47,188 bases of DNA. It comes from Rhodospirillaceae bacterium (GTDB lineage Bacteria; Pseudomonadota; Alphaproteobacteria; Rhodospirillales; Rhodospirillaceae). The DNA is taken from the NCBI GenBank assembly GCA_002691085.1, contig NZGX01000046.1, positions 2,364-49,551 on the forward strand. Direction: 5' to 3'. Positions 12,863 through 47,188 of the stretch are shown piece by piece; the first letter of the stretch is position 1, and each line of letters begins with the position of its first letter. Both the position numbers and the translations under genes were made by a program. The notes under the pieces were generated by a model that worked only from the letters and a program-made list of their open reading frames with translations, ran no database searches and was not told where the DNA came from.

Positions 12863-14197
12863 CTATAGTACCTTATTTAGTGCATCAATAAATGAATCTA
12901 GGTGACTTTTGGTATTCATCTCAGTTGCAGTAACTAACATTAAATTACTTAAATGAGGATGCTCTGGATAAAACCTTGAGACAGGTATACCAGCTAAAAT
13001 GTTTAAATCCGTAAGTTCATCAATTACACTCCCTGCTGACCTTGGTAACTCGACGACAAATTCATTAAAGAAACTAGAATTTATAACTTTTATTTTAGGA
13101 ATATTGTTCAACCTTATTGATAGTTCTACAGCATTTTTATGATTTATATTGGCTAGTTCTAGGAAACCACTTTCTCCTAAAAGTGTAAGATGAACACTAA
13201 AAGCTAGAGCAATAAGACCCGAGTTTGTACAAATGTTAGATGTGGCTTTTTCTCTTCGGATATGCTGTTCCCTGGTAGACATGGTTAAAACAAATCCCCT
13301 CTTTCCATCTTTATCAAGTGTTTGACCACAAAGTCTTCCTGGCATTTGACGTACATATTTTTGTAATGATGCAAAAAAACCTAGGCCTGGACCTCCAAAA
13401 TTTGATGGCCCCGCAAGCGATTGTCCCTCACCCACAACTATATCTGCTCCCATTTCACCCGGTGACTTAATCAGTCCAAGAGAGACAGGTTCTGTGACAA
13501 CAACGATAAGAAGTACACCCTTATAACGACATTCATTTGCTATAGACGTGTAGTCTTGAATATTACCAAAAAAACTAGGATTCTGAATTACTAAGCATGA
13601 TAGGTTAGTATCTATTTGATTTAAAAGGTCCTCTTTACCAGATACGTAAGGATCTAGAACTTTAAAATCAAAACCTAAGTGTTTTAATTGTGTTTTAGAG
13701 ACATCAATATAATGAGGATGAAGACCACCAGATATTAAGACTTTTGATCTCTTATTTATCCTTGACGCCATAGAAATTGCTTCTGCACAGGCAGTAGCAC
13801 CATCATACATTGAAGCATTAGCAATTTCCATCCCAGTAATTAAAGCAACTTGAGTTTGAAATTCAAATATAACCTGCAAGGTACCTTGGCTTATTTCTGG
13901 TTGGTATGGAGTATATGAAGTTAAAAACTCCCCCCTTTGAATAATGTAGTCAAGCGATGCAGGTGAATAATGACAATAGTTTCCTGCACCCAAAAAAGAT
14001 GGTACCTGAGTATACGGTAAGTTTTCATTTGCAATTTGAGATAATTCTCTATCTACCTGAAGTTCACTTTTGTGTTTAGGAAGGTTTTGTGGTACCTCCG
14101 ACTTAGGGAGTTCATCAAATAAATTATCAATAGATTCTATTCCAATTGTATTAAGCATTGATTCTCTATCTTTATTACTTAGGGGTAAATATCTCAT
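12863..14197 (-). CDS. gcvPA: Glycine dehydrogenase (decarboxylating) subunit 1
   Basis: The track ORF starts at a TTG (14203). I prefer the ATG at 14197, which gives the canonical MRYLPLS N-terminus and has AAAGG 8 nt upstream. Contains a TPYQPEISQG motif. Confidence 0.92.
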   Translation of the reverse strand: MRYLPLSNKDRESMLNTIGIESIDNLFDELPKSEVPQNLPKHKSELQVDRELSQIANENLPYTQVPSFLGAGNYCHYSPASLDYIIQRGEFLTSYTPYQPEISQGTLQVIFEFQTQVALITGMEIANASMYDGATACAEAISMASRINKRSKVLISGGLHPHYIDVSKTQLKHLGFDFKVLDPYVSGKEDLLNQIDTNLSCLVIQNPSFFGNIQDYTSIANECRYKGVLLIVVVTEPVSLGLIKSPGEMGADIVVGEGQSLAGPSNFGGPGLGFFASLQKYVRQMPGRLCGQTLDKDGKRGFVLTMSTREQHIRREKATSNICTNSGLIALAFSVHLTLLGESGFLELANINHKNAVELSIRLNNIPKIKVINSSFFNEFVVELPRSAGSVIDELTDLNILAGIPVSRFYPEHPHLSNLMLVTATEMNTKSHLDSFIDALNKVL

Positions 14198-14210
14198 CCA
14201 CAATACCTTT

Positions 14211-14591
14211 CTATTCTGTAATTTTTTTTATATATTCTTCGTACTCACTGTGACTCAGTAAAGAATTTAATTCCTGTGACTCAATCTCAGAAATTTTAAA
14301 TAGCCAACCATCACCTTCAGGATTTAAATTTACTAAATCAGGACTACCCTCAACCGCATCATTACAAGTGATTACTTTTCCAGAAATTGGAGCATAAATT
14401 TCACTTGCAGCTTTTACTGATTCAATTACAGAAATTTCATCTCCTTGAGAATACACACTACCTAGACTAGGAAACTCAATAAAAACGATATCACCCAACT
14501 GCTTTTGTGCAAAATCTGTTATACCCACTGTTGCTGTGTCATCCCTAACGGTAACCCACTCATGTTCTTTCGTGTAAAAATATCCTTCCAT
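14211..14591 (-). CDS. gcvH: Glycine cleavage system protein H
   Basis: 126 aa with the lipoyl-lysine motif ESVKAASE and the N-terminal YTKEHEW motif. Confidence 0.93.
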   Translation of the reverse strand: MEGYFYTKEHEWVTVRDDTATVGITDFAQKQLGDIVFIEFPSLGSVYSQGDEISVIESVKAASEIYAPISGKVITCNDAVEGSPDLVNLNPEGDGWLFKISEIESQELNSLLSHSEYEEYIKKITE

Positions 14592-14594
14592 ATA

Positions 14595-15752
14595 TTAACC
14601 TCCCCTATAGTATTTATTAGAGACAAATGGAAGTTGAACAACCTCAGCTTCAACATTTTTGTCTCTTATCTCAACAAATAGCTTTGAATTTGGATTTGAA
14701 AATTCATTTGCAATTAATGCAACTGCAATCGAACAACCAATTGAAGGACTATAAGCGCCAGAAGTTATTTTCCCAATTTCCAAACCATCTAATGATTTCA
14801 CTGCCATCCCTGGACGTGCAATTGATTTTCCAAGCAACCTTAATCCAGTTCTGAATTTAGATGGCTTAGTTTTTAACTCATTTATAATTCGTGAACTGCC
14901 AAGAAAATTACCTTCTTTGATCCTTTTTTTACTCAAAGACCAAGATAAGTTTGCTTCTACAGGTGATGTATCATCATTTATATCATTACCATATAAACAT
15001 AGACCTGCTTCAAGCCTTAATGTATCACGCGCACCTAGCCCAATAGGCAAAGTTTCTTTATATTCTAATATTTTCTCAGCTAATTGCTTAACGTAATTAT
15101 TTTCTATGGAAATCTCAAAACCATCCTCACCTGTATAACCACATCTTGAAATAATAATCTCCTTATCATCTAAAGTATCTTTTTGACATTTCATAAAGGC
15201 CATTTTGGTAACTTGTGGGATTATTCTTTTCAAAACATTGGAAGATTCAGGGCCTTGGAGTGAAATAAGTGAAAGGTCGGGTCTCTCTCTTAATGTAGTG
15301 CCAGGGTTGAGGTGAGACCTTATAAATTGATAATCTTTATCCTTACAAGATGCGTTTACTATAATTCTATATAAAGGCTGGCCATTGGTAATCTTTAAAA
15401 GAGAAATCATAAGATCATCAACGATGCCTCCATTATCATTCAGGATTTGGGAATATCTTATTTGACCTATATTTAGACTTCTAAGATCAATTGGAATAAT
15501 TCTCTCTAATGCAGAAATTATATCACCCCCGTAGAGGTCTGCTTGACCCATGTGAGATACATCAAAAAGCCCACAAGAACTTCGGGTGTGAAAATGTTCA
15601 CTTATAATAGAAGTTTCATACTTCAAAGGCATTGAGTAGTTTGCAAAGGGAACAAGTTGAGCCATTAAACTTTTGTGTAAAGGCAACAATGATGTAGCTT
15701 TTAGTTTATATGACTCTCGAGGGTCTCCCAAGTGAAACTCCATTTTAGACAA
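14595..15752 (-). CDS. gcvT: Glycine cleavage system aminomethyltransferase T
   Basis: 385 aa. GLFDVSHMGQ motif and C-terminal barrel. The start is ambiguous between TTG at 15752 and ATG at 15743. Confidence 0.9.
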   Translation of the reverse strand: MSKMEFHLGDPRESYKLKATSLLPLHKSLMAQLVPFANYSMPLKYETSIISEHFHTRSSCGLFDVSHMGQADLYGGDIISALERIIPIDLRSLNIGQIRYSQILNDNGGIVDDLMISLLKITNGQPLYRIIVNASCKDKDYQFIRSHLNPGTTLRERPDLSLISLQGPESSNVLKRIIPQVTKMAFMKCQKDTLDDKEIIISRCGYTGEDGFEISIENNYVKQLAEKILEYKETLPIGLGARDTLRLEAGLCLYGNDINDDTSPVEANLSWSLSKKRIKEGNFLGSSRIINELKTKPSKFRTGLRLLGKSIARPGMAVKSLDGLEIGKITSGAYSPSIGCSIAVALIANEFSNPNSKLFVEIRDKNVEAEVVQLPFVSNKYYRGG

Positions 15753-15771: not shown

Positions 15772-15982
15772 GAATGCTATTCCTTACAGACGCCCTCCTC
15801 TGTCTAAAACCTGAGAGTTTGACCGGTGATATCTTACCAGCTTTCCCCTTCGGTGAAATACCCGTTTATAATGGGTAATTACTTTCCAGAGTCCCTTACC
15901 TTAGCGGTCCTGGTGCCTGAGAGATTCCGAGGGTAGTTGCTCCTTCGGCGTCTTATTTTAACTTAAAGACTCTTCCACTAAA
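15772..15982 (-). promoter_or_regulatory. Tandem glycine riboswitch (two aptamers plus expression platform) in the gcvT leader
   Basis: On the minus strand, aptamer 1 reads GGAAGAGTC...ACGCCGAAGGAGCAACTACCC...CTCTCAGGCACCAGGACCGC. Aptamer 2 reads CTCTGGAAAG...TCACCGAAGGGGAAAGC...ACTCTCAGGTTTTAGACAGAGGAG. These match the conserved glycine-aptamer cores. A hairpin AAGGAAT-AGC-ATTCCTT follows. Confidence 0.85.
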
Positions 15983-16042
15983 GACTAACGGATATAAATT
16001 CAATAAACCAGTTCATATAAAAAGGTCAATAAATAAATTTAT

Positions 16043-20359: not shown

Positions 20360-21646
20360 TCATCTATTGGAATAACGTTTTACTCTTAAATCACACTGTT
20401 TCTTATGACCAAAAAATTTTTCAATCTCACATAACCTTGAGCCATAAGAGCCAATTATTTTAGATGCCTCTTCAGTACACCTCTGGTAGGTACACGTTTT
20501 GATAAATTTACCAACCCAGAGACCGCCAGTAAATCTGGCAGACTTATTAGTTGGCAATGTGTGATTTGTTCCTATTACCTTATCTCCATATGCAACATTT
20601 GTTTCCTTACCTAAGAAAAGGGCACCATAATTTCTAAGGTTTTCTAACCACCAATCCAAATCATCTGCAAACACCTGAACGTGTTCTGAGGCTATACCGT
20701 TTGCGTGAGAAAGCATCTCATCATTATCACTACATAGGATTATTTCACCGTATTTAGACCATGCTTCTCCAGCAATTTCAGCTGTTTCTAAAATTTTAAG
20801 CTGCTTCTCAATTTCTAAAACTGTCTCGCTAATTACCCTTTGAGAGGTTGTTATAAGAATTGCAGGAGATGTAGGGCCGTGCTCTGCTTGCCCCAAGAGA
20901 TCAGTAGCTACCATCTCACCATCTGCGGTATCATCTGCAATGATTAATACCTCTGTTGGGCCAGCCAAAAGATCTATCCCTACCCTTCCATAAAGCTGCC
21001 TTTTTGCCTCAGCAACATAAGCATTGCCTGGTCCAACTATCATATCAACTTTCTGTATCTCTTTAGTGCCTAGCGCCATACCTGCGATAGCCTGAACACC
21101 GCCTATGAGGTATATCTCATCAACACCAGCAAAATGCATTGCTGCAATAGTGGCTGGATGGGGGTCTAGTCCATCTTGAGGGGGCGTTGAAGCGATAACT
21201 CTTCTACATCCAGCAACACGAGCTGTAATTATACTCATGTGAGCTGAAGCAACCATTGGATATCTCCCACCTGGTACATAACAACCGACGCTATCAATGG
21301 GTATATTTTTATGACCTAAAACAACCCCAGGAAAGGTCTCGACTTCAGTATCAGATATGCTCTTCATTTGAATTTCAGCAAAATTTCTAATCTGATCTTG
21401 AGCAAACTTAATATCTTTAAGAGTCTGCTCCTGGAGGCTATCAACACATTTAGCTATATCACTATCAGACATTCTAAAACTTGTACCTGTAAAATTATCA
21501 AATTTTTTTGCATACTTAATTAAAGCATGGTCTCCATTATTAGAGATATCATCTATAATGCCTGCAACTGTTTGGATTACATCCACTAAATTATTTGAAC
21601 TAGTACTATTATTTATATCATTTGCTCTTTTTATATATTCAACCAT
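20360..21646 (-). CDS. Histidinol dehydrogenase family protein (HisD or a HisD paralog)
   Basis: 428 aa. Contains GCYVPGG, GGVQAIAGMALGT, VGPGNAYVAEAK, AGPTEVLIIAD and LLGQAEHG motifs. There are no other his genes nearby. Confidence 0.8.
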   Translation of the reverse strand: MVEYIKRANDINNSTSSNNLVDVIQTVAGIIDDISNNGDHALIKYAKKFDNFTGTSFRMSDSDIAKCVDSLQEQTLKDIKFAQDQIRNFAEIQMKSISDTEVETFPGVVLGHKNIPIDSVGCYVPGGRYPMVASAHMSIITARVAGCRRVIASTPPQDGLDPHPATIAAMHFAGVDEIYLIGGVQAIAGMALGTKEIQKVDMIVGPGNAYVAEAKRQLYGRVGIDLLAGPTEVLIIADDTADGEMVATDLLGQAEHGPTSPAILITTSQRVISETVLEIEKQLKILETAEIAGEAWSKYGEIILCSDNDEMLSHANGIASEHVQVFADDLDWWLENLRNYGALFLGKETNVAYGDKVIGTNHTLPTNKSARFTGGLWVGKFIKTCTYQRCTEEASKIIGSYGSRLCEIEKFFGHKKQCDLRVKRYSNR

Positions 21647-27462: not shown

Positions 27463-27780
27463 TTATGCTGGAGGCGCAACTTTTAGAACTAAACCATCTA
27501 GTTTATCATCTATAAAAATTTGGCAGCTAAGGCGTGACTCAGACTCAACATAATATTGCTCATCTTCAAGAAGTTCGATTTCCTCATCAGACATCTCATT
27601 TATACGATCTCGCCATTCCTGATCAATATAAACATGGCACGTTGCACATGAACAACAGCCTCCACATATAGCTTCAATATCTAAGTCGTTATCCCTAATT
27701 ACCTCCATAAGTGAGTCACCAGCATCCGCATCTAGGTCATGCTTCTCACCATTACGATCAGTTACATAAATTTTTGGCAT
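27463..27780 (-). CDS. [2Fe-2S] ferredoxin, adrenodoxin/putidaredoxin type
   Basis: Cys pattern CGGCCSCATCHV plus a distal Cys in LSCQI. I use the ATG at 27780 (MPKIYVTDRNG), because the 18-codon upstream extension in the track has no family support. Confidence 0.85.
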   Translation of the reverse strand: MPKIYVTDRNGEKHDLDADAGDSLMEVIRDNDLDIEAICGGCCSCATCHVYIDQEWRDRINEMSDEEIELLEDEQYYVESESRLSCQIFIDDKLDGLVLKVAPPA

Positions 27781-27937
27781 AAAAACTCCATAAAGACACA
27801 AATTTGCACTGTTAATAATGACTACTAAATGCAAAAATAAATATAAAAAAATACTTTAAAAATAGATAGTCTTAATACAATGTAAAAAACAATAATTCAA
27901 TAATATAGAAACTATCTCAAAATAAAATGGAGTAGGT

Positions 27938-36868: not shown

Positions 36869-37873
36869 TTAATCGCGCCTTGGGTCTTCAATTTCTTTTG
36901 GACTCCAAGGTAATTCAGAAATTTTTCTGGGAGTATAAGATCTCTCTAGCCTTATAAAATCATCATCTACTAAGTCATGGACCGTGGCACTAATAGCATC
37001 TAAAAGGTGATTTTCTTTTGTAACACCAATGATCGGGTTTGCACCTTTATGAATTAACCAAGATATCCCAACCTCGGCTGGTTTTATATTGTACTTTTTT
37101 GCAATAAAAACAACATCATCTAAAACTGGATCGTAAGTATCTCCATAGAGTATATTTTGTACATTTTCATCCTCAGAGCCTCTCTCAGTTTTGGCAGATT
37201 TACTGCCTGCCCTTGCAATTCTTCCCCTTGCAAGGGGGCTCCATGGAATAAGACCCATGCCTTGGTCTTTAATAAAAGGAATTAAGTCTCGCTCATCTTC
37301 TCTATGTAAAAGATTGTAATGATTCTGCATGCAAACAAACCCTTGCCATCCCTGTTCCTTAGCAACTATCTGAGCTTTTGCTAATTGCCAGCAACGCATA
37401 TTTGAAGCCCCAATATAGCGCGCCTTTCCAGATTTTATAACTTGGTGCAACGCATCCATAGTCTCTTCTATTGGGGTCTTTGTATCCCACCTATGGACTT
37501 GATATAAATCAATGCGCTCAACATTTAACCTCTTTAATGAACCATCGATAGAGCTTAAAATATTTTGTTTAGTTAAACCAATTAGATTTGGTGTCTCTGG
37601 GGAAGGATAAAACATTTTTGTAGAAACAATTATTTGATCTCTAAGATTATTCTCCTTTAAGAATCTACCTAAAATCTCTTCACTCTTTCCGCTAGAATAG
37701 ACATTAGCTGTATCAAAAAAATTAATACCCAGATCAAAAGCTTTTTTCATCAACCTCATAGATTGATCACTGCCAACAACCCATTCTCTCCAATTTGGTG
37801 AACCAAAACTCATACACCCTAAGATCACTTTAGAGACTTCCAGTTCAGTATCTCCTAAGAAATTATATTTCAT
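36869..37873 (-). CDS. Aldo/keto reductase
   Basis: 334 aa with LGCMSFG, FDTANVYS, DLYQVHRWD and IGASN motifs. Confidence 0.9.
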   Translation of the reverse strand: MKYNFLGDTELEVSKVILGCMSFGSPNWREWVVGSDQSMRLMKKAFDLGINFFDTANVYSSGKSEEILGRFLKENNLRDQIIVSTKMFYPSPETPNLIGLTKQNILSSIDGSLKRLNVERIDLYQVHRWDTKTPIEETMDALHQVIKSGKARYIGASNMRCWQLAKAQIVAKEQGWQGFVCMQNHYNLLHREDERDLIPFIKDQGMGLIPWSPLARGRIARAGSKSAKTERGSEDENVQNILYGDTYDPVLDDVVFIAKKYNIKPAEVGISWLIHKGANPIIGVTKENHLLDAISATVHDLVDDDFIRLERSYTPRKISELPWSPKEIEDPRRD

Positions 37874-37904
37874 TGAGTTAGTCTCACCTTAGTAATTAAA
37901 AATT

Positions 37905-38669
37905 TCAGAGATCCAAGTATCTCTCTTGCCAGCCATTTATAAGAGGATGTTTTTGGTCAGGGCTAGAATTATCTTTTAAGCCAATAGCATTCATCATTGA
38001 CCAAGCAAGACACATATTTGAAGTAAATACAATAATATTTCTCTCTTTCATAATTTTTTCAACAACACTTAAGCTTGGCATACCTGTTCCTGTCAAAAAC
38101 AATGCATCGACGTTACTTAAGTCAACTTTATACAATGTTTCCAATGCATCTTTAGAAGTTAACTCATAAATAGCTCTTGTATCATCAGAAGAAATTTTAA
38201 TTCTTGTTGCACTTTTTACATCCAAGCCCCTACTAACCCAATAATCTTTGCACATATCAACTGACCACTGTGGGTAAGGAGCACCTATAGCAATTTTAGA
38301 AATTTGCAAAAAATTCATTGCCTGTTCAATCGCTAAACCTGCAGAAATAACTGGATATCCTTTTTCATTAGATAAAAGATCTAAGGCTTTATCTTCCTCA
38401 TCCCTTCCAACGAGATAAGTAGCCGCAGTACAGGCAAAGCCACAAACATCCAACTTAAGGGTATCATATGTTAATAGAGTTTTACCTAGGCTATTAAAAT
38501 ACTCCAAATACCTCTCTTTAGGGTCTTTTCTTTTACTAACGAGACGAGAGGTAATTATAGAAACTTTTCTTGGAAAAAGTGCATACATCTCTGGTTCAAC
38601 TGTTGGGTTTGCTTGTGGAACAGAAACCCCCACCCTACCTAACGAACCATAGTCCCTTTTTACTGACAT
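37905..38669 (-). CDS. Asp/Glu/hydantoin racemase superfamily protein (maleate isomerase / arylmalonate decarboxylase-like)
   Basis: 254 aa. GRVGVSVPQANPTVEPE N-terminus and a first catalytic-Cys motif (GFACTAAT). The second motif reads LTGTGMP, with no Cys. Confidence 0.65.
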   Translation of the reverse strand: MSVKRDYGSLGRVGVSVPQANPTVEPEMYALFPRKVSIITSRLVSKRKDPKERYLEYFNSLGKTLLTYDTLKLDVCGFACTAATYLVGRDEEDKALDLLSNEKGYPVISAGLAIEQAMNFLQISKIAIGAPYPQWSVDMCKDYWVSRGLDVKSATRIKISSDDTRAIYELTSKDALETLYKVDLSNVDALFLTGTGMPSLSVVEKIMKERNIIVFTSNMCLAWSMMNAIGLKDNSSPDQKHPLINGWQERYLDL

Positions 38670-38693
38670 ATTTATAATCCTCCAACCTGCATC

Positions 38694-39866
38694 TTATTCA
38701 TTATCAACACCATTTAGAATTAAATTTATAAAGTATGCATCATCCCATGCAAAATTTATCTCACCTGACCTATATATGCTTAATCTTTCTGAAGGAATAA
38801 AATAGAGTCTTTGCCCTCCTCTCCCTTCAATAAAAAAAACATCTTCTTTTAAATAAGGAGAGGACACTGGAATAATTCTCCCTGAAGGCTTACTAAGTAA
38901 TCTTCCTCCAGAAAACGGAGAACCTCTCCAAATATGCATCGCAAAATTTGGATTCGTATTAGAACCTCTCAACATAATATTAATCCATTTTTCTGAAATC
39001 ACCTGAACACCATCAAGCTTTCCATTGTTAGCAAGCATTGATCCTATGCGAATCCAGTCCATTGCTTTTGTCTGGATACAGCAGAAAACTCTTGCGTCTC
39101 CTCCCTTTCTATCAAGTCTTACTTGAGCAAAGCTCCCTGAAAGAGGTTTCCATAAATTTTCTCTTAAGAATTCTGAGTATCTTCTCCCAGATGATTTAGT
39201 CAGTACAGAATGTAAAGCCTGGCTATTAATATGATTAAAATCAAAAGAAGATCCTGGTTCAAATGCATATCCGATATCCTCCACAAGACTAAAAATATTT
39301 TCTCCAAAAAAAAGCCTTTGACCAAGGGAGAAGGGACTTTTGTTATATTCTATCTGCTTGAGACCTGAAGTCATGTAAAGAAGATTACCAATAGTTATTT
39401 CTTGCCTCTTATCACCTTTCCATTCAGGAATATAATCAGATACTCGAGTATCAATTGATGGAATTAAATTTTTATCTAAAGCAATTACTGTAGCAATACC
39501 CAAAATACCCTTATGCATTGACTGTGAATCGATAATAGTATTCCGGTTATATCCCTCCTTATAATATTCCAGCTCCAAAGATTCATTACGAGAGATTAAT
39601 AAGGCTAAACTATTAAATGACTTTGCATATTCTACGGCAGACTCCAAAGTATCATCACTAATTGTCCTATTATCAGATTTTGTAATTGATAAAGGTATTA
39701 ATTCCCTATTTTCAATAACTTCAATTGGAGAATACCACTGCCAAGAAGTAAGCACCTCACTATCATCTGGCTGTTTAAACCACCTTAGCCAAAAAGTATG
39801 ATCAATATAGAGATAAAAGCTAAGTGGAATAACAACAAAAAAGGGGATAAGGTATTTTTTAATCAA
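38694..39866 (-). CDS. Membrane-anchored serine hydrolase (beta-lactamase / class C esterase family)
   Basis: 390 aa with an N-terminal TM helix, an S-x-x-K motif (SMHK) and an LLYMTSGL motif. Confidence 0.7.
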   Translation of the reverse strand: MIKKYLIPFFVVIPLSFYLYIDHTFWLRWFKQPDDSEVLTSWQWYSPIEVIENRELIPLSITKSDNRTISDDTLESAVEYAKSFNSLALLISRNESLELEYYKEGYNRNTIIDSQSMHKGILGIATVIALDKNLIPSIDTRVSDYIPEWKGDKRQEITIGNLLYMTSGLKQIEYNKSPFSLGQRLFFGENIFSLVEDIGYAFEPGSSFDFNHINSQALHSVLTKSSGRRYSEFLRENLWKPLSGSFAQVRLDRKGGDARVFCCIQTKAMDWIRIGSMLANNGKLDGVQVISEKWINIMLRGSNTNPNFAMHIWRGSPFSGGRLLSKPSGRIIPVSSPYLKEDVFFIEGRGGQRLYFIPSERLSIYRSGEINFAWDDAYFINLILNGVDNE

Positions 39867-39933
39867 GTCATTGCTCCTATAATAATCTAATAATTGTGAA
39901 TAAAAATCATTAACGGTTGTAATAGTCTATCAA

Positions 39934-41055
39934 ATGGAAACACACCTCATGAAAAAAAAATCTATTATTATTATATCTGCATCAATAATTATAAATGCTA
40001 TTGTATTTTCTAACTCAAATGCTCAGTTTTTTGGTGCACCTGAAAAGCATTTTGATGAATACGAAAAACCACCCAAGCCTGATTATAGCAAAGAGTCAAG
40101 TTGGGCGGCTCTTCCAGATCGACAAGATGCTGCTGATGTGTTCCCTGAAAACTCTTTATATAAAGAAAATCAACCTTCTGCAAAAGTTGATGTATTTTAT
40201 ATTCACCCTACAACCTACCGAAATGCAAAAAATTGGAACCAAGATATTAACCTAGAAGAGGTTAATACCTGGACTGATTTAAGCCGTGTTTCTCGTCAAG
40301 GCAGTATTTTTAATGCATGCTGTAAAGTATTTGCACCAAGATACAGACAGGCCGCATTCGGAGCAACATCATCAAAGGAAAGTGGAAAGCTTGCATATGA
40401 CTTCGCCTACCAAGACGTACTAAGTGCATGGAAATATTACATTAATAACTTCAACCATAACCGTCCATTTATAATTGTTGGCCACAGTCAGGGGGCACTT
40501 CATGCCTTCAACTTAATTAAGGAAGAAATTGATAAGTCAAAATATTTTAAAAATATGGTTGCTGCATACATTATTGGTATACCTGTGTTAAAAGGACAGA
40601 TTGAGTTATCAATGAAGAATACTTCAATATGTAAAAAAATATCTGACATAAACTGTATAGTCTCTTGGAATACTTTCACCATGGGTTCTGATGCTTCAAT
40701 TTATAAGAAAATGGCAGTATCTCGTCTCGGTGAAGGACTTGAAGCAAAAGCAGACAAGGGCCTAGTATGCTGGAATCCAACGTCAAATTATATTGATTTA
40801 AACAAAATAAAACCAAACATATCCAATTTGGGGCCTATACCAACAGTTAAAAAAGGTGGAGAACTTCCTGATTTAGCTGAAAAAATCAAAGCTAAATGTG
40901 ATGATGGTATTTTATTTGCCTCTCCACCAAATTCTAAAGAATTTGATTTATTTACCCTTCCAGGAGGAAGTCTTCATATGCACGATATGGAGCTTTTCTA
41001 TGAAAATATAAGAATAAACTCTATTCTGAGATCAAAATACTACACTGTAAATTAA
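39934..41055 (+). CDS. Exported DUF3089-like alpha/beta hydrolase
   Basis: 373 aa with a signal peptide, VDVFYIHPTTY, and a nucleophile elbow (GHSQGA). Confidence 0.6.
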   Translation: METHLMKKKSIIIISASIIINAIVFSNSNAQFFGAPEKHFDEYEKPPKPDYSKESSWAALPDRQDAADVFPENSLYKENQPSAKVDVFYIHPTTYRNAKNWNQDINLEEVNTWTDLSRVSRQGSIFNACCKVFAPRYRQAAFGATSSKESGKLAYDFAYQDVLSAWKYYINNFNHNRPFIIVGHSQGALHAFNLIKEEIDKSKYFKNMVAAYIIGIPVLKGQIELSMKNTSICKKISDINCIVSWNTFTMGSDASIYKKMAVSRLGEGLEAKADKGLVCWNPTSNYIDLNKIKPNISNLGPIPTVKKGGELPDLAEKIKAKCDDGILFASPPNSKEFDLFTLPGGSLHMHDMELFYENIRINSILRSKYYTVN

Positions 41056-41198: not shown

Positions 41199-41246
41199 CC
41201 GTCCTCAGGGGTAGATAGAATTATCAAGGACGGTCTTGTTTTGAGG
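41199..41246 (+). promoter_or_regulatory. GC-rich hairpin plus T-tract and possible anti-SD pairing in the leader of the redox operon
   Basis: CCGTCCT (41199-41205) pairs with AGGACGG (41227-41233) across a 21-nt loop and is followed by TCTTGTTTT. CCTCA (41203-41207) is complementary to TGAGG (41242-41246), which lies within the GAGGGG RBS upstream of the ATG at 41252. Confidence 0.25.
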
Positions 41247-41251
41247 GGAAA

Positions 41252-43687
41252 ATGATGGCAGAAATTTTTAAAGTTGCCATTGTAGGATCAGGACCGGCTG
41301 GATCAAGTGCCGCAGCTAGGGCAGCCAAGCTAGGCATGAGCCATATATTGATTGAGAGACAAGATCATATATCTGATACAATTTTTAAGTATCAGAAAGG
41401 TAAATTTGTCATGGCAACTCCTGATTTTTTGCCTCTTCGCTCTGATTTAAATTTTCAAGCCGGTAAAAGAGAAGAAATATTAGACGTTTGGGATAACGGG
41501 CTAGAGGATTGTAAGGTAAACGTAAAATTTGACACCGAAGTAACAAGTATAAAAAAAGAAAAAAATTTTACTATAACCTATGCAGATGGAAAAACTTGTG
41601 AAGCGGAAAACGTAATTCTATCAATCGGCCTTCAGGGAAATATAAATAAATTACCATGTGAAGGGGCTGAACTTCCCTTAGTACAATATCAACTGGACGA
41701 CCCAGAAGAATATGAAGCTGAAACTATTGTTATTATAGGTGCAGGAGATGCAGCAATTGAGAACGCTGTTGCTTTATCAAAACAAAATACTGTTATTATA
41801 GTCAACAGAAGAGCTGAATTTGCTAGAGCAAAACAAGGCAACCTATCTTTGATAAGTGAGGCAATCGAAAAAGGTAATGTCGAAGCCTACTATGAAGCCT
41901 CCCCAGTTAAAGTTGAAAAAGATTCGATTACCTTAAAAACAGCTGATGGTGAAGCACGTGTACCATGTAATCGGATTATTGCAAGATTAGGAGCATCTGC
42001 CCCAAGACGTTTTGTTGAATCATGTGGGGTTGATTTTCCAGATAAAGAAGAATTAAAAAAAGACCCAAAAAAAAGACCTGACCCTAGAGTACTTCCTGAA
42101 GTTAGTGCTCAATACGAGTCAAATGTACCCGGTCTTTTTATTATTGGGGCCCTTGGTGGATACCCACTAATTAAACAAGCAATGAACCAGGGTTATGAGG
42201 TTGTTGAATATATTGGGGGAAACAAAATTCCTCCGGCGGATGAACCTCTTCTTGTTGAAAAATTCTCTGTCTTAAATAATCAAAATGTAGATGATGTATT
42301 AGAAACAATAAGAAAAAATATTCCTATCTTTGAAAAACTCAATACACTTCTTTTAAGAGAAGCAATACTAGAATCAAATGTTCACGCTTTTAAAAAAGAC
42401 GATACCATTTTTAAGCGTAATGATTACTCCAATACCTTTTATACAATATATGTTGGAGAGGTTGGTATTCTCGTTGATCCAAATGACCCTTCACAAGTCG
42501 TAACACTTAATCAAGGAAACTTTTTTGGCGAAATGGGACTTATCTCAGGCAGAAGACGTGCTGCAACTGTAAAAGCAATATCTGATTGCATAGTTTTTGA
42601 GACCCCAAGAAGGACAATGCTAAAGCTAATTCAATCAGTTGAAAGCGTAAAAGATAATTTAGATAAAGTCTCAATGCTTCGCCAAATTCAAACACACCTC
42701 ACCCCAGGTGTTGATGCTAGTGATTTACAAGAATTAATTGAGACAGCAGAAATAGAAAATTTTTCTGCAGGAGATGTCATTTTTAACCAAGGCGATGAAG
42801 GTGATCATATGCACCTTATCCGATCAGGATCATGTACAGTTTCTGTCAAAGTCGGAGGTAAAGACATTGTACTCAGTTATGTCCCTTCAGGTAATTATAT
42901 TGGAGAAATGGCTTTACTGTCCGACCAACCAAGATCAGCAACTGTCAAAGCTGCTCATAATACCCAAACTATAAGATTAACCGGAAAAGCCTTCAAAGAT
43001 GTTTTGAAAAAAAATAGTAGTATAAAAAATAGTGTTGAAAAGAAGTTTAAAGAAAGAATTAATCAAAATGAAAAAATGGAGGGACAACCCGAGGCAGGAA
43101 ATATTATTCAATTCCTAATAGAGCAAGGCGTTGGTGAAGGAACAGATGTTTTACTGATTGATGAAACTTTATGTATTCATTGTGATAATTGTGAAAAAGC
43201 CTGTGCAGAAACACATGGTGGTTTATCTAGATTAAATAGAGAGGCTGGTCCTTCTTATGCCTCTATACATGTACCGACTTCATGCAGACATTGCGAGCAT
43301 CCTCATTGTATGGCTGACTGTCCTCCCGATGCCATACATAGAGCACCAGATGGAGAGGTCTTCATAGATGATAGTTGTATTGGATGTGGGAATTGTGAAA
43401 GGAATTGTCCATATGGGGTAATTCAATTGGCCGCCCCCCCACCAGAAAGATTTAATTTATTCTCATGGCTGTTGTTTAATAAAGGGCCGCCCCCAGGGGA
43501 TTTAAGAAAATCAACAGATTATAAAAACAAAAAAAAGAAAGATGAAAATCAAATTAAACAAGCCGTTAAGTGTGATATGTGTAAAGATATTGAAGGAGGA
43601 GCATCCTGTGTTAGGGCTTGCCCAACTGGAGCTGCTGCCCGAGTAAGCCCTGAGGAATTCATGTCCATAACAAGCCTTACAAGCTAG
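41252..43687 (+). CDS. Fusion protein: FAD/NAD(P)H pyridine-nucleotide oxidoreductase + 2 cyclic-nucleotide-binding domains + four-cluster [4Fe-4S] ferredoxin module (DmsB/NrfC-like)
   Basis: 811 aa. Contains FAD-binding GSGPAGSSAA and NAD(P)-binding IGAGDAAIENA with VNRR, but no TrxR-type CxxC. The two cNMP phosphate-binding cassettes are FFGEMGLISGRRRAATVKA and YIGEMALLSDQPRSATVKA. The four Cys groups are CIHCDNCEKAC, CRHCEHPHCMADCP, CIGCGNCERNCP and CDMCKD-x6-CVRACP. Confidence 0.85.
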   Translation: MMAEIFKVAIVGSGPAGSSAAARAAKLGMSHILIERQDHISDTIFKYQKGKFVMATPDFLPLRSDLNFQAGKREEILDVWDNGLEDCKVNVKFDTEVTSIKKEKNFTITYADGKTCEAENVILSIGLQGNINKLPCEGAELPLVQYQLDDPEEYEAETIVIIGAGDAAIENAVALSKQNTVIIVNRRAEFARAKQGNLSLISEAIEKGNVEAYYEASPVKVEKDSITLKTADGEARVPCNRIIARLGASAPRRFVESCGVDFPDKEELKKDPKKRPDPRVLPEVSAQYESNVPGLFIIGALGGYPLIKQAMNQGYEVVEYIGGNKIPPADEPLLVEKFSVLNNQNVDDVLETIRKNIPIFEKLNTLLLREAILESNVHAFKKDDTIFKRNDYSNTFYTIYVGEVGILVDPNDPSQVVTLNQGNFFGEMGLISGRRRAATVKAISDCIVFETPRRTMLKLIQSVESVKDNLDKVSMLRQIQTHLTPGVDASDLQELIETAEIENFSAGDVIFNQGDEGDHMHLIRSGSCTVSVKVGGKDIVLSYVPSGNYIGEMALLSDQPRSATVKAAHNTQTIRLTGKAFKDVLKKNSSIKNSVEKKFKERINQNEKMEGQPEAGNIIQFLIEQGVGEGTDVLLIDETLCIHCDNCEKACAETHGGLSRLNREAGPSYASIHVPTSCRHCEHPHCMADCPPDAIHRAPDGEVFIDDSCIGCGNCERNCPYGVIQLAAPPPERFNLFSWLLFNKGPPPGDLRKSTDYKNKKKKDENQIKQAVKCDMCKDIEGGASCVRACPTGAAARVSPEEFMSITSLTS

Positions 43688-43696
43688 GAATAAACA

Positions 43697-44518
43697 GTGC
43701 ATGAATCCCTCCTAATTTATAAAAAATTTAAATACCTTAAATTGACTCTCACCACTGTCATTTTATGTATCGTTTTATATTTGTATCACTCGCCTATTGG
43801 AAGCCCTAATGGGGGAACATGGTTAGGGTATACACTTGGCACACTCGCTGCTTTGATAATGTTTTGGCTAGCATGGTTTGGTGCAAGAAAAAGATCCTAC
43901 AATAAATCAAAAGGGAATCTTGAGGAGTGGGCCTCTGCTCATGTGTATCTGGGTTTAGCTCTAGTAGTAATATCTACTTTACATAGTGGTTTTCAGTTTG
44001 GATTAAATATCCACACGATTTTATATTTCTTAATGATGATAGTAATAATTAGTGGGATTATAGGAGTTTATTTCTATCTAAAATTTCCAAGCCTTATAAC
44101 AAAAAATAGAAATGGTCTGACGACAGAAATGATGTTAACTCAAATTACTGAGATAGATGAAGATATAAGAGAGCTATCAATGTCTCTCGATGATTTTACT
44201 GTTGATTTAATGACAAAAGCAATTGAGGAAACAGTTATTGGAAAAAGTTTTATTATTAAACTTAAAGGAGTTGACCCAGATTGCCATACCTCCTTAGCAA
44301 GAAAACATCTAAGAGAGAAAAAATTTTCTGGAAACAATAAGATTAGAGAGCAGCTTTTATCCAAACTAACTAGAAAAGAGAAAATCTTAGATCAACTGAG
44401 AAATGATCTTAAAATGAGATCTCTTTTACAAATCTGGCTATACATACATGTGCCTTTCACATTTGCTGCACTGGCAGCATTGATAATACATATTTTTTCT
44501 GTTTTTTATTATTGGTAG
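43697..44518 (+). CDS. 5-TM membrane protein with two H-x13-H pairs (putative di-heme b-type transmembrane electron carrier)
   Basis: 273 aa. GTG start with AGGA 6 nt upstream. H82/H96 lie in predicted TM3 (HVYLGLALVVISTLH) and H251/H265 in TM5 (HVPFTFAALAALIIH). A hydrophilic insert of about 110 aa separates TM4 and TM5. Confidence 0.6.
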   Translation: MHESLLIYKKFKYLKLTLTTVILCIVLYLYHSPIGSPNGGTWLGYTLGTLAALIMFWLAWFGARKRSYNKSKGNLEEWASAHVYLGLALVVISTLHSGFQFGLNIHTILYFLMMIVIISGIIGVYFYLKFPSLITKNRNGLTTEMMLTQITEIDEDIRELSMSLDDFTVDLMTKAIEETVIGKSFIIKLKGVDPDCHTSLARKHLREKKFSGNNKIREQLLSKLTRKEKILDQLRNDLKMRSLLQIWLYIHVPFTFAALAALIIHIFSVFYYW

Positions 44519-44524
44519 AATAAA

Positions 44525-46285
44525 TTGAAAATACTTTTTTCACATATCACTAGAAAAAAACGCGGGGGTATTGCAACACGCAATGAGTATGCTGAAGCCG
44601 ATACAATCACGATTGGTAGAAGTACAAGTTGCGAATTAAGTCTTTTAGATCCAAGAGTTCATCTAGAACATGCAAAAGTTGTAAAAAAACTAGATACTTA
44701 TGAAGTGATTGCAGCAGAATATACGCTCATAGAGGTTAATGGGGAACTTGTTGATAAAATAACTTTAAAAACTGGAGATACTTTCCTAGTTGGTCCATAC
44801 AAAATTATTTTTGAAAGTCCTTCTAGTGACGCAGATCTTAAATTATCAATTGAACTTACTAAAAATCTAAGAAACCAGGTCAGTGATCTAATCTCTAGAT
44901 CTAATATTGACTCATCAAACTTTGGTATATCTAAAAGAACATGGTCATGGTCACTTTTCTCAATAATTACTGCACTGTTTCTTATGATTCCTCTCTTAGT
45001 AATAAATTCTTCAAAAGAGAATTTAAGTAGTCTTGACCCAGAGGATCTTAATAAAAGCTCAACAAGCCTAGTTAGCGTTTGGAGTACAGGTGAAATATCA
45101 TCTCCACATAATTTTTTTGCACATGATTGTGAAGTATGTCATGAGAAACCTTTTGTTCCAGTACAAAATAATTCTTGTGCTAAATGCCATGATGATATCC
45201 AACATCATGCAGATACAAAACTTTTCCCAAGTGCGAGTCTGAGTGACTTAAGCTGTCAATCTTGTCATAAAGAACACCAAGGTAAAATAACCGTTGTAAA
45301 GAATAACCAAGATTTTTGTGCAAGTTGCCATGACGCAATCCAAGACGAACCAAATTCTCTACTTCGTAATGTTTCAGATTTTGGGAAAAATCATCCGCAA
45401 TTTAATCCTACTGTAATAATTGATAAAGATAAAAATACAAATAGAAGCCTTTCAATTGGGGGAGATCCCAAACCCATTGAATTCTCCGGGTTGCTTTTTA
45501 ATCACGCCGTTCACCTCAGAGAAACTGGTGTAAGGCATCCTAATGATGGAATAATTGACCTAGAGTGTAAAGATTGTCATGTTTCTGATAGCGGTGGAGT
45601 TTCAATGTTACCAATTTCATTTAAAGAACATTGTAACAGTTGTCACAAACTTTATTTCGACTCATCCCTTCCTGAAAGAGAATTATACCACGGAGATACA
45701 AAAGAACTCTTTATTCAAGTTGAGAATGTTTATAACTCTATTGCATTTCAAGGGGGTTATATAGGGAAAGATGCGCCGAATGTAATCAGGCGACGCGCAG
45801 GCCAGACTCTTAGCCAAACTGAGCGTGTTGAAGCAGCAGAATGGGCAAAAAGAAAAAAAGAACAAGTTCTTGATGGTCGTTTTGGAAAGGATAGGTGTGC
45901 TGAATGTCATCTCATTAAAAACAATGAGGAAAGATGGACAATACAATCAGTAAATATCACAGATAGCTGGTTTCCTAAAGCAAATTTCACCCATGAGAGT
46001 CATGAAGATATGGAATGTATTAGTTGCCATGAAGCAAACAGGTCAGAGCAAGCCACAGATGTAATTCAACCTTCTATAGAAATTTGTCAAAGCTGTCATG
46101 GTGGTGAAAATGCTAGGTCTAAAATTCCATCAACATGTGTGACATGTCATGGTTTTCACTTTGAACATATGTCACCAATCTATCCAATTAATGAGGTCAA
46201 AGTTAAAGAAACGACAATACTCTCAAGCCTTTCAGAGAAGAATCTAGCTTTATTTAACAAAAGAGAAAATAATGAAATACCATAA
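44525..46285 (+). CDS. FHA-domain / single-TM / decaheme c-type cytochrome (cytochrome c3/c7-like)
   Basis: 586 aa with a TTG start. FHA pattern: ITIGRS...HLEHAKV...VNGELV...GDTFLVGPYKIIF. TM helix WSLFSIITALFLMIPLLVI at about aa 141-160. Ten CxxCH motifs between 45128 and 46150: CEVCH, CAKCH, CQSCH, CASCH, CKDCH, CNSCH, CAECH, CISCH, CQSCH, CVTCH. Confidence 0.85.
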   Translation: MKILFSHITRKKRGGIATRNEYAEADTITIGRSTSCELSLLDPRVHLEHAKVVKKLDTYEVIAAEYTLIEVNGELVDKITLKTGDTFLVGPYKIIFESPSSDADLKLSIELTKNLRNQVSDLISRSNIDSSNFGISKRTWSWSLFSIITALFLMIPLLVINSSKENLSSLDPEDLNKSSTSLVSVWSTGEISSPHNFFAHDCEVCHEKPFVPVQNNSCAKCHDDIQHHADTKLFPSASLSDLSCQSCHKEHQGKITVVKNNQDFCASCHDAIQDEPNSLLRNVSDFGKNHPQFNPTVIIDKDKNTNRSLSIGGDPKPIEFSGLLFNHAVHLRETGVRHPNDGIIDLECKDCHVSDSGGVSMLPISFKEHCNSCHKLYFDSSLPERELYHGDTKELFIQVENVYNSIAFQGGYIGKDAPNVIRRRAGQTLSQTERVEAAEWAKRKKEQVLDGRFGKDRCAECHLIKNNEERWTIQSVNITDSWFPKANFTHESHEDMECISCHEANRSEQATDVIQPSIEICQSCHGGENARSKIPSTCVTCHGFHFEHMSPIYPINEVKVKETTILSSLSEKNLALFNKRENNEIP

Positions 46286-46697
46286 GTTTTTTTTAATGAG
46301 TCTTATAATAATTTTAACCTTCACTAAAACTGTAATTAGTGAGACAGTAATATTAGAAAGTGAAGCAAAGTTTTTAGGAAAATTAAGCTCTAAAGACCTT
46401 GAGAGTCAATTTTCAATTAATGTAAAACTCAATGGGGATATTCCACTTGCAACATATGTATCAGCGCGTTTTCAAAATAATCAGCCAAAACAAAGATTAG
46501 CCAATAGTTTATGGATAGATTGGAATGAGAGAGTCGAAACTTTACAGAATAACGGTTTTGCGCCAACTGAAAATGACATGCTAATATTCGATATTTTTGA
46601 GGAGAAGCTTGATTATACTTTCCTACCAATAATTATAACTATCTCATACTTAGGCCATGATAGTTTAAAATCAGGATATTATATAATAGACCAATGA
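46272..46697 (+). CDS. Small exported hypothetical protein
   Basis: 141 aa with a signal peptide (FFLMSLIIILTFTKTVISE). Its start overlaps the cytochrome gene by 14 nt and its stop overlaps the next start (ATGA). Confidence 0.5.
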   Translation: MKYHKFFLMSLIIILTFTKTVISETVILESEAKFLGKLSSKDLESQFSINVKLNGDIPLATYVSARFQNNQPKQRLANSLWIDWNERVETLQNNGFAPTENDMLIFDIFEEKLDYTFLPIIITISYLGHDSLKSGYYIIDQ

Positions 46698-47188
46698 AAA
46701 TACTTTTTTATATTGCCTTTATTTTCTTTACTGTTTTTTATTCAGAAAAAGCTCTTTCTGAATTCCTAAGCATTTCTGATGTTAATCGTATTGTTGGGCA
46801 AGCAAAAGGTGAGGCATCTGCATTAGGTATTAATAATGCTGTAATTGCAATCTCAGACAGAGTTGGCAATATTCTTGCAGTCTATGCAATGAATCCTGAT
46901 GATATACCCAATATTACAATTACTTCAGGAAGAGGTATAGCAATAGGCAATGGACTGGAGAGCCTCTCATTACCAATCACTCCATTGGCCGCAATTTCAA
47001 AAGCAATTACGGGCGCCTATCTCTCTTCTTCAGGTAATGCATTCACTACAAGAACAGCCAGTCAAATTGTTCAAGAATTTTTTAATCCTGGGGAAAAAGG
47101 ACAGCCGGCTGGGCCCCTATTTGGTGTGCAGTTTAGTCAGTTAGCCTGCTCAGATCTAATGAGGTTTGGAGAAAACATTGGCATTGGT
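46694..47188 (+). CDS. Exported GlcG/HbpS-like (DUF336) domain protein, 3' partial (runs off the window)
   Basis: I translated 165 open codons by hand from the ATG at 46694 to the window end. Not in the ORF track because it is open-ended. Has a signal-like N-terminus. LSISDVNRIVGQAKGEASALGINNAVIAISDRVGNILAVY and AISKAITGAY resemble the GlcG/HbpS heme-binding fold family (from memory). Confidence 0.45.
   Translation, partial: MKILFYIAFIFFTVFYSEKALSEFLSISDVNRIVGQAKGEASALGINNAVIAISDRVGNILAVYAMNPDDIPNITITSGRGIAIGNGLESLSLPITPLAAISKAITGAYLSSSGNAFTTRTASQIVQEFFNPGEKGQPAGPLFGVQFSQLACSDLMRFGENIGIG

Follow-up and report, generated by a model that had tools for sequence, protein, structure and literature searches.

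Near the end of a 47,188-nucleotide stretch from a Rhodospirillaceae bacterium (GenBank assembly GCA_002691085.1, contig NZGX01000046.1, positions 2,364 to 49,551 of the forward strand; hereafter the window), five tightly spaced open reading frames (ORFs), g1 to g5, run in one direction on the plus strand (41252-47188). We read this region as encoding an NADPH-driven, outward electron conduit that is modulated by cyclic nucleotide monophosphates (cNMPs), a reading that we hold to be probable, if only modestly so. We propose that the complete system spans the cell envelope and that the window encodes its inner-membrane half. The simplest path that would use every invariant ligand, we propose, leads from NADPH through FAD, iron-sulfur (FeS) clusters, b hemes and c hemes to cytochromes encoded downstream.

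In this scheme, NADPH would reduce the FAD of g1, and electrons would run along the four [4Fe-4S] clusters of the same protein. They would then cross the membrane through two stacked b hemes in g2, ligated by H82/H251 near the cytoplasm and by H96/H265 near the periplasm, and enter the ten bis-His c hemes of the membrane-anchored g3 in the periplasm. Beyond the window, the putative acceptors of g3 are a c554-like tetraheme cytochrome and/or a decaheme-LVIVD protein (g7); the latter, encoded beside an outer-membrane barrel candidate and an HbpS-like protein, may reduce a periplasmic or extracellular acceptor. The cNMP-binding domains of g1 would modulate the flux in response to cAMP or cGMP, and the FHA-fold domain of g3 would dock g1 or an insert in g2. 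We infer the cofactor loading, the subunit contacts, the direction of flow, the cNMP control and the nature of the acceptor from the domains, conserved ligands, gene linkage and topology signals described below.

Domains and conserved ligands of the three core proteins

The preliminary description of this DNA, made from the sequence alone, had placed an FAD/NAD(P)H module, two cNMP-binding domains and a 16-cysteine ferredoxin module for four clusters in the single protein g1. Profile and structure matches bear this out. Pfam assigned g1 to Pyr_redox_3 (98 bits), Pyr_redox_2 (83 bits), cNMP_binding (PF00027; 133.9 bits over two domains) and the Fer4 dicluster models. In a PDB sequence search, the nearest solved relative of the FAD/NAD(P)H domain was YpdA/Bdr (7a7b, E 2e-16), that of the cNMP pair was the tandem cyclic nucleotide-binding (CNB) domain of PKA-R (4mx3, E 1e-23), and that of residues 634-799 was the formate hydrogenlyase subunit HycB (7z0s_B, E 5e-18). 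All 16 ferredoxin cysteines are invariant among 65 near-full-length homologs, and they form the motifs CxxCxxCxxxC (C641/644/647/651), CxxCx4CxxxCP (C678/681/686/690), CxxCxxCxxxCP (C709/712/715/719) and CxxCx8CxxxCP (C774/777/786/790). The dinucleotide glycine motifs G12-x-G14-x-x-G17 and G163-x-G165-D166 are invariant in the same set, and the G-E...R signature of the phosphate-binding cassette is 92-100% conserved in both CNB domains (G426/E427/R436 and G551/E552/R561). The homologs also share an NRRxEFxRxK stretch, which we take to resemble the NADPH 2'-phosphate motif of thioredoxin reductase (TrxR). Neither a signal peptide nor a transmembrane (TM) segment was found in g1. With the CNB domains placed between the flavin module and the FeS module, allosteric gating by cNMP is plausible.

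Two assignments of g1 were rejected. A thioredoxin-reductase-type disulfide reductase was ruled out, since no CxxC is conserved in residues 1-330 of the 65 homologs. Identification as TrxR/YpdA was dropped on the scores for TIGR04018 (115 versus a cut-off of 339.9) and TIGR01292 (53 versus 343); g1 approached the cut-off of no NCBIfam equivalog. Separately, one database protein, P0185 (1110 amino acids), is a g1 homolog fused in frame to a C-terminal g2 homolog, the junction being a read-through of the usual short intergenic gap; this fusion may be consistent with direct contact between g1 and g2.

The membrane protein g2 has five TM helices, both by hydropathy and in an all-helical AlphaFold2 (AF2) model (predicted local distance difference test, pLDDT, 84.5), with a helical cytoplasmic insert of about 105 residues between TM4 and TM5. 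Among 78 homologs, H82 is kept in 77, and H96, H106, H251 and H265 in all; H82/H96 and H251/H265 constitute two H-x13-H pairs on TM3 and TM5, respectively. Lysine and arginine are frequent in the N-terminus, loop 2-3 and loop 4-5 and nearly absent from loops 1-2 and 3-4 and the C-terminus. On the basis of this charge bias we place the N-terminus inside and the C-terminus outside, and TM3 and TM5 would therefore both run from inside to outside, with one ligand pair at each membrane face. Such a pairing (H82/H251 on the cytoplasmic side, H96/H265 on the periplasmic side) would, we propose, give g2 the geometry of a two-heme transmembrane wire. The five helices and the four membrane histidines that the preliminary description had pointed out stand. 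Its likening of the histidine spacing to NADPH oxidase (NOX) and ferric reductase (FRE) domains was not matched by the profiles, which show a weak affinity to prokaryotic cytochrome b561 instead: 36 of 51 g2 homologs matched Ni_hydr_CYTB (PF01292) at E<=0.01 (best 2.4e-7), 11 matched DUF4405, and a single one matched Ferric_reduct (PF01794; E 0.003), to which the g2 of the window gave no match. We rejected g2 as a NOX/FRE domain for this lack of a PF01794 match, for its five helices and for the location of the flavin domain on a separate protein, although the histidine spacing does fit. A profile search of the PDB returned no sequence match for g2. The family is large, with 322 representatives at E<=1e-30 and 1538 at E<=1e-10 (50%-identity clusters).

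The profile family PF01292 contains quinone-reactive cytochromes b, and we considered that g2 might be a cytochrome b that oxidises quinol (or reduces quinone) and supplies g3, as in CymA, NapC or NarI-like systems, with g1 as a regulatory or auxiliary protein. That PF01292 is the nearest profile family of g2 speaks for this arrangement, as do the extra invariant H106 and the conserved polar residues near the periplasmic face. Nevertheless, an NAD(P)H flavoprotein that carries an invariant four-cluster wire and is encoded directly upstream is hard to understand as an accessory. The 105-residue insert and the FHA domain, both of which face the cytoplasm, suggest that g2 and g3 offer a docking site to a protein there. 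We consider a quinol-linked g2 quite unlikely.

In g3, the ten CxxCH motifs already counted in the preliminary description are invariant among 16 homologs, as are ten additional histidines, and 78 of 79 homologs taken from the loci described below have all ten motifs. This pattern is consistent with ten bis-His hemes. Pfam matched g3 to FHA (28 bits; cut-off 20.7) and to cytochrome c7/c3 models, and the PDB sequence search gave marginal c7 and FHA matches only. AF2 predicted an FHA sandwich in residues 1-111 (pLDDT about 89) and, with confidence, a TM helix in residues 137-166; in Foldseek, the former matched the FHA domains of GarA and OdhI (TM-score 0.72-0.80). The single TM helix is preceded by SKR. 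Since c-type heme attachment occurs in the periplasm, the heme domain must be periplasmic, and the SKR motif and the charge bias of g2 fit this topology, in agreement with the placement first suggested. The FHA domain likewise stands as a fold in all three analyses, and its suggested role as a signalling input has become weak. The Ser of the phosphothreonine-binding site (VSRRHA in GarA) aligns to VHLEHA in g3 and is L, A, R, P or H across the family; of 79 homologs, 65 retain Arg32, which belongs to the same site. Given that the canonical Ser is replaced, this domain is probably a docking module, for g1 or the g2 insert, rather than a phosphorylation reader. Other identities of g3 were tried and rejected: MtrA/DmsE (TIGR03508, 24 bits versus a cut-off of 192.2), TmcA, which was the best NCBIfam match yet reached only 38.7 bits against a cut-off of 114, and NapC/NirT/CymA (no napC_nirT match at E<=0.1).

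The cluster in related genomes and its extent in the window

Gene linkage was counted over 80 species-representative genome loci, with only informative loci included. In 52 of 61 loci, g3 is immediately preceded by homologs of g1 and g2, and g1 lies within the locus in 60 of 61; the three core genes thus co-occur strongly across genomes, as the preliminary description required. In five loci (L050, L053, L054, L061 and L062), the g1 homolog follows g7 rather than preceding g2 and is still inside the cluster. The predicted cofactor ligands of g1 to g3 are conserved in homologs down to 25-30% identity. The nearest relative is the single-amplified genome AG-426-B21, whose g3 is 90% identical. The hosts are mostly known from metagenome-assembled genomes (MAGs) of marine Alphaproteobacteria and belong mostly to aerobic marine heterotroph lineages; cultured carriers are Oceanibacterium hippocampi CECT 7691, Marinobacter salexigens, Marinobacter sp. 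S6332 and several other gammaproteobacterial lineages. One full cluster (L040, CAMYID010000023.1) is from the MAG Biocath_Alpha_33, apparently of a biocathode community, and this origin could hint at an interaction with electrodes or minerals.

The electron path was originally thought to end at g3 and two exported proteins. In relatives it does not: the conserved cluster runs on for about 8 kb beyond the position at which the window cuts g5, and it adds an outer-membrane barrel candidate, the decaheme-LVIVD protein g7 and a tetraheme cytochrome. Where enough sequence was available downstream, g5, g6 and g7 follow the core in 54 of 58 loci, and a tetraheme gene flanks g7 in 34 loci. In the related locus L001, a full-length g5 is followed by g6 (611 amino acids) and g7 (1283 amino acids), with a c554-like tetraheme gene nearby. 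The part of g5 in the window shares 72% identity with the N-terminal end of its L001 counterpart; the protein has about 620 residues in relatives, and in L001 it matches HbpS-like in three stretches (74.9 bits). L001 g6 has an outer-membrane-type C-terminus and weak matches to alginate-export and Desulfovibrio porin models, which make it a candidate outer-membrane barrel. The remaining gene of the window, g4, matched no family and is conserved only among some of the alphaproteobacterial loci (37 ORFs in all).

Of all components, the secreted g7 (L001 15895-19746), which has ten CxxCH motifs and an LVIVD propeller, is conserved best. Its homologs are 61-88% identical to the L001 protein across Alpha- and Gammaproteobacteria, and the mean column identity (L001 and 53 homologs) is 65%, with hundreds of invariant columns, which exceeds the conservation of g1 to g3. 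This degree of conservation suggests an enzymatic or catalytic role rather than that of a passive wire. The heme region is remotely similar to Geobacter ExtM (73 bits, E 1e-20; the ExtM cut-off is 800), and a PDB sequence search found no match for g7. Between g7 and the tetraheme gene, L001 also encodes a Crp/Fnr-family regulator with an N-terminal cysteine cluster, C..CxxCx6C (20547-21353), which might control the gene cluster in response to oxygen.

We also asked whether the complex might act as a sensor that reports the periplasmic or extracellular redox state through its cNMP and FHA domains, with no bulk electron flux. Two signalling-type domains are embedded in the redox proteins, and the cluster in relatives includes an HbpS-like protein; such proteins have been linked to redox sensing in Streptomyces. 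Against this, the cluster proteins contain no kinase, cyclase or DNA-binding output domain, the phosphothreonine site of the g3 FHA domain is degenerate, and a total of 24 c hemes, two b hemes and four FeS clusters in relatives would be excessive for sensing. We regard a purely sensory complex as highly unlikely.

The features within the window are given in Table 1. The junctions are +9 nt (g1/g2), +6 nt (g2/g3), -14 nt (g3/g4) and -4 nt (g4/g5, ATGA), as had been noted before, and the five packed, co-directional ORFs are operon-like; the number five does not hold for the operon as a whole, since g5 is open at the window end and the cluster continues in relatives. A Shine-Dalgarno-like GAGGGGA lies 5' of g1, and the non-ATG starts of g2 and g3 agree with the N-termini of aligned homologs. 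The G+C content of the window is 32-37%.

Table 1. Features of the gene cluster in the window
Feature	Position	Strand	Description or basis
g1	41252..43687	+	811 aa cytoplasmic flavo-FeS protein
g1 FAD/NAD(P)H two-dinucleotide-binding domain	41267..42193	+	Pyr_redox_2, aa 6-314
g1 tandem cNMP-binding domains	~aa 350-610	+	Pfam and PDB sequence matches
g1 HycB-like four-[4Fe-4S] ferredoxin domain	aa 634-800; 43151..43651	+	Pfam, PDB sequence match, Cys conservation
g2	43697..44518	+	273 aa, GTG start; 5-TM inner-membrane protein, candidate di-heme cytochrome b
g3	44525..46285	+	586 aa, TTG start; bitopic decaheme cytochrome c
g3 cytoplasmic FHA-fold domain	aa 1-111; 44525-44857	+	Pfam, AF2, Foldseek
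g3 TM helix	aa ~137-166; 44933-45022	+	AF2
g3 periplasmic heme domain, 10 CxxCH and 10 further invariant His	aa 195-545; 45107-46159	+	
g4	46272..46697	+	141 aa exported protein, N-terminal hydrophobic signal-like segment
g5, 5' part	46694..47188	+	165 codons, ORF open at window end; exported HbpS-like/DUF336

A hairpin upstream of g1 (41200-41235) was dropped as a regulatory element: its stability is no better than that of shuffled sequence (z = 0.33), and conservation is uninformative 5' of g1, where the sequence is 96% identical to that of the nearest relative. Promoter and terminator scans gave background levels only, and Rfam had no match in the cluster region. The genes preceding the cluster (36869-41055), which encode an aldo-keto reductase, a beta-lactamase-like, an Amdase-like and a second beta-lactamase-like protein and a DUF3089 protein, are syntenic with L001 967-6502. 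The cluster proteins of L001 are only 47-73% identical to those of the window despite this synteny, which points to a stable chromosomal position with no obvious mobile element.

Two features elsewhere in the window were also recorded. A tandem glycine riboswitch on the minus strand (15798-15987; two RF00504 aptamers in Rfam, 63.7 and 36.7 bits) precedes a run of four co-directional ORFs, of 385, 126, 446 and 498 amino acids (14595-15752, 14211-14591, 12863-14203 and 11364-12860), whose sizes alone would fit a glycine-cleavage operon. The sole other ORF of the window with a CxxCH motif (27463-27834, minus strand, 123 amino acids, one motif) may encode a monoheme cytochrome c.

Relation to described systems

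The cluster proteins had no equivalog-level match among curated respiratory complexes in Pfam and NCBIfam, and none of the outcomes that the preliminary description had named as refuting, identity with a characterised complex among them, was observed. Its logic is shared with Tmc, Hmc, DsrMKJOP and NarGHI/FdnGHI, which combine a periplasmic multiheme cytochrome c, a membrane di-heme cytochrome b and a cytoplasmic or peripheral FeS protein; a four-cluster ferredoxin is wired to a di-heme cytochrome b in NarH-NarI and FdnH-FdnI. Those complexes, however, contain neither a flavoprotein nor cNMP-binding or FHA domains and are not linked to NAD(P)H, and the window cluster, unlike the complexes of sulfate reducers, is without a CCG/Hdr-like subunit. 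NOX/FRE and MsrQ-Fre share with the proposed path the order NAD(P)H, flavin, two stacked b hemes on H-x13-H helices and extracytoplasmic acceptor. They differ in that the flavin domain of g1 is of the Pyr_redox type rather than FNR-like and is on a separate polypeptide, in that an FeS wire is intercalated, and in that g2 has five TM helices versus six; no NOX structure in the PDB was recovered by Foldseek with the g2 model. Finally, the relatives encode decaheme cytochromes and an outer-membrane barrel candidate, as do MtrCAB-type porin-cytochrome systems and Geobacter ext clusters, whereas both the Mtr and the ext systems are fed from the quinol pool through CymA, ImcH, CbcL or a bc-type complex rather than from a cytoplasmic NADPH flavoprotein.

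The closest descriptions are found in two preprints. Elbon et al. (bioRxiv 10.1101/2023.11.21.568154) described ptdABCDEFG, a putative porin-cytochrome cluster whose function they stated to be completely unknown. It comprises the NrfA-like pentaheme PtdA, the porin PtdB, the FAD/NAD(P) oxidoreductase PtdC, the tetraheme PtdD, the cNMP-binding FeS protein PtdE, the ferric-reductase-like TM protein PtdF and the periplasmic decaheme PtdG (10.1101/2023.11.21.568154). Matched by description and by homologs in ptd-type loci, PtdC and PtdE together correspond to g1, PtdF to g2 and PtdG to g3, and the c554-like tetraheme is shared with the window-type clusters of relatives. The differences are as follows. 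First, in place of PtdA and PtdB, the window type has the HbpS-like protein, another barrel candidate and the decaheme-LVIVD protein; in blastp, the pentaheme showed no similarity to g7, and the ptd-type porin none to g6. Second, the window type adds g4, and its g1 is fused into one polypeptide. Third, the preprint counts two FeS clusters, and the g1 sequence has four motifs.

Loci of ptd composition, with tetraheme, pentaheme and porin genes (L030, L035, L058 and L085), carry true homologs of g1 to g3; in Ferrovibrio sp. (L085), the identities to the window proteins are 57% (g1), 35% (g2) and 31% (g3). The core is accompanied by the tetraheme alone in L044. Because the same three genes occur with two different outer modules, g1-g2-g3 is a self-contained unit, a portable inner-membrane module that is found with at least two unrelated outer modules or with only a tetraheme cytochrome. 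A split g1 was seen in L082 (135-1265; 376 amino acids), where only the cNMP and ferredoxin part, which fits the description of PtdE, lies upstream of g2, g3, g5, g6 and g7 homologs on a contig that begins just before it. The PtdA-like pentaheme family (L035 14217-16082) has more than 3,282 clusters at 90% identity (E<=1e-10); its members are 65-78% identical across distant lineages and are annotated by NCBI only as 'multiheme c-type cytochrome'.

The second preprint reports, in Ferrigenium straubiae, an NHC module in which an FHA-nonaheme cytochrome is encoded beside 5-TM and [4Fe-4S] proteins (bioRxiv 10.64898/2026.01.22.701106). The module was expressed under all conditions tested, and its function was unknown to the authors, who noted that the TM protein had no redox motifs and suggested that electrons flow inward to quinone (10.64898/2026.01.22.701106). 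Likened here by description only, it shares with the window cluster a three-part layout, in which the [4Fe-4S] protein is cytosolic and the 5-TM protein is accompanied by a multiheme cytochrome that has one TM helix and an FHA domain in the cytosol; it differs in having nine hemes rather than ten, and flavin and cNMP domains are not mentioned there. The variant with HbpS-like, barrel and decaheme-LVIVD proteins is reported in neither preprint, and our literature searches for the variant, including LVIVD or HbpS with multiheme proteins in connection with g5 to g7, found nothing relevant. The preliminary statement that no characterised module has this composition is accordingly correct in that the system is uncharacterised; it was not unreported, as its core matches both descriptions.

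Direction of electron flow and biological meaning

The inside-negative membrane potential favours outward electron movement. All of the cofactors are reversible in principle, and we considered a conduit in the opposite direction, in which a periplasmic or extracellular donor such as Fe(II) passes electrons through g3, g2 and g1 to NAD(P)+ or the quinone pool. Such electrons would move against the membrane potential, and the reduction of NAD(P)+ from donors at the level of Fe(II) would be strongly uphill in a cluster without an energy-coupling subunit; the prevalence of aerobic marine heterotrophs among the hosts also argues against it. For inward flow, one can cite a homologous-looking module in a lithoautotrophic Fe(II) oxidiser, for which this role was proposed (10.64898/2026.01.22.701106), the single locus from a biocathode MAG (L040) and the presence of the cluster in Marinobacter (L068 and L069). 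On this evidence, an inward conduit seems to us unlikely.

Several points weigh against the outward, NADPH-driven conduit that we prefer. In the view preferred by the Ferrigenium authors, electrons from Fe(II) oxidation flow inward (10.64898/2026.01.22.701106). Heme binding by g2 is read only from the pattern of its histidines; the window protein scored 25.1 bits against PF01292, below the gathering cut-off of 30.1, and Foldseek of its AF2 model recovered generic helical bundles with no PDB match above a TM-score of 0.5. The heme domain of g3 has a pLDDT below 50 in the AF2 model and is unusable there. The lone g1-g2 fusion may be a read-through, sequencing or gene-calling artefact. Moreover, outward flow from NADPH dissipates energy, and its benefit would therefore be non-respiratory; candidate roles are reductive nutrient acquisition, the production or removal of reactive species, and detoxification.

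A more far-reaching speculation, which we think rather doubtful, is that the whole cluster is an envelope-scale counterpart of NADPH oxidase and ferric reductase: a cNMP-gated pathway, independent of quinone, by which aerobic marine heterotrophs would spend NADPH to reduce a substrate outside the cell. This substrate could be O2 (to superoxide), ligand-bound Fe(III), Mn oxides or iodate. If this were true, the cluster would provide a molecular basis for the widespread and enzymatically unassigned production of extracellular reductants and superoxide by marine bacteria.

If the outward conduit itself is correct, cytoplasmic NADPH would be wired to periplasmic and possibly extracellular hemes without passage through the quinone pool, and second messengers would control the route. 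The system is common in ocean bacteria, including streamlined, AT-rich plankton in which multiheme machinery is unexpected, and it could bear on iron acquisition, extracellular superoxide, the transformation of metals or nitrogen oxides, and bioelectrochemistry.

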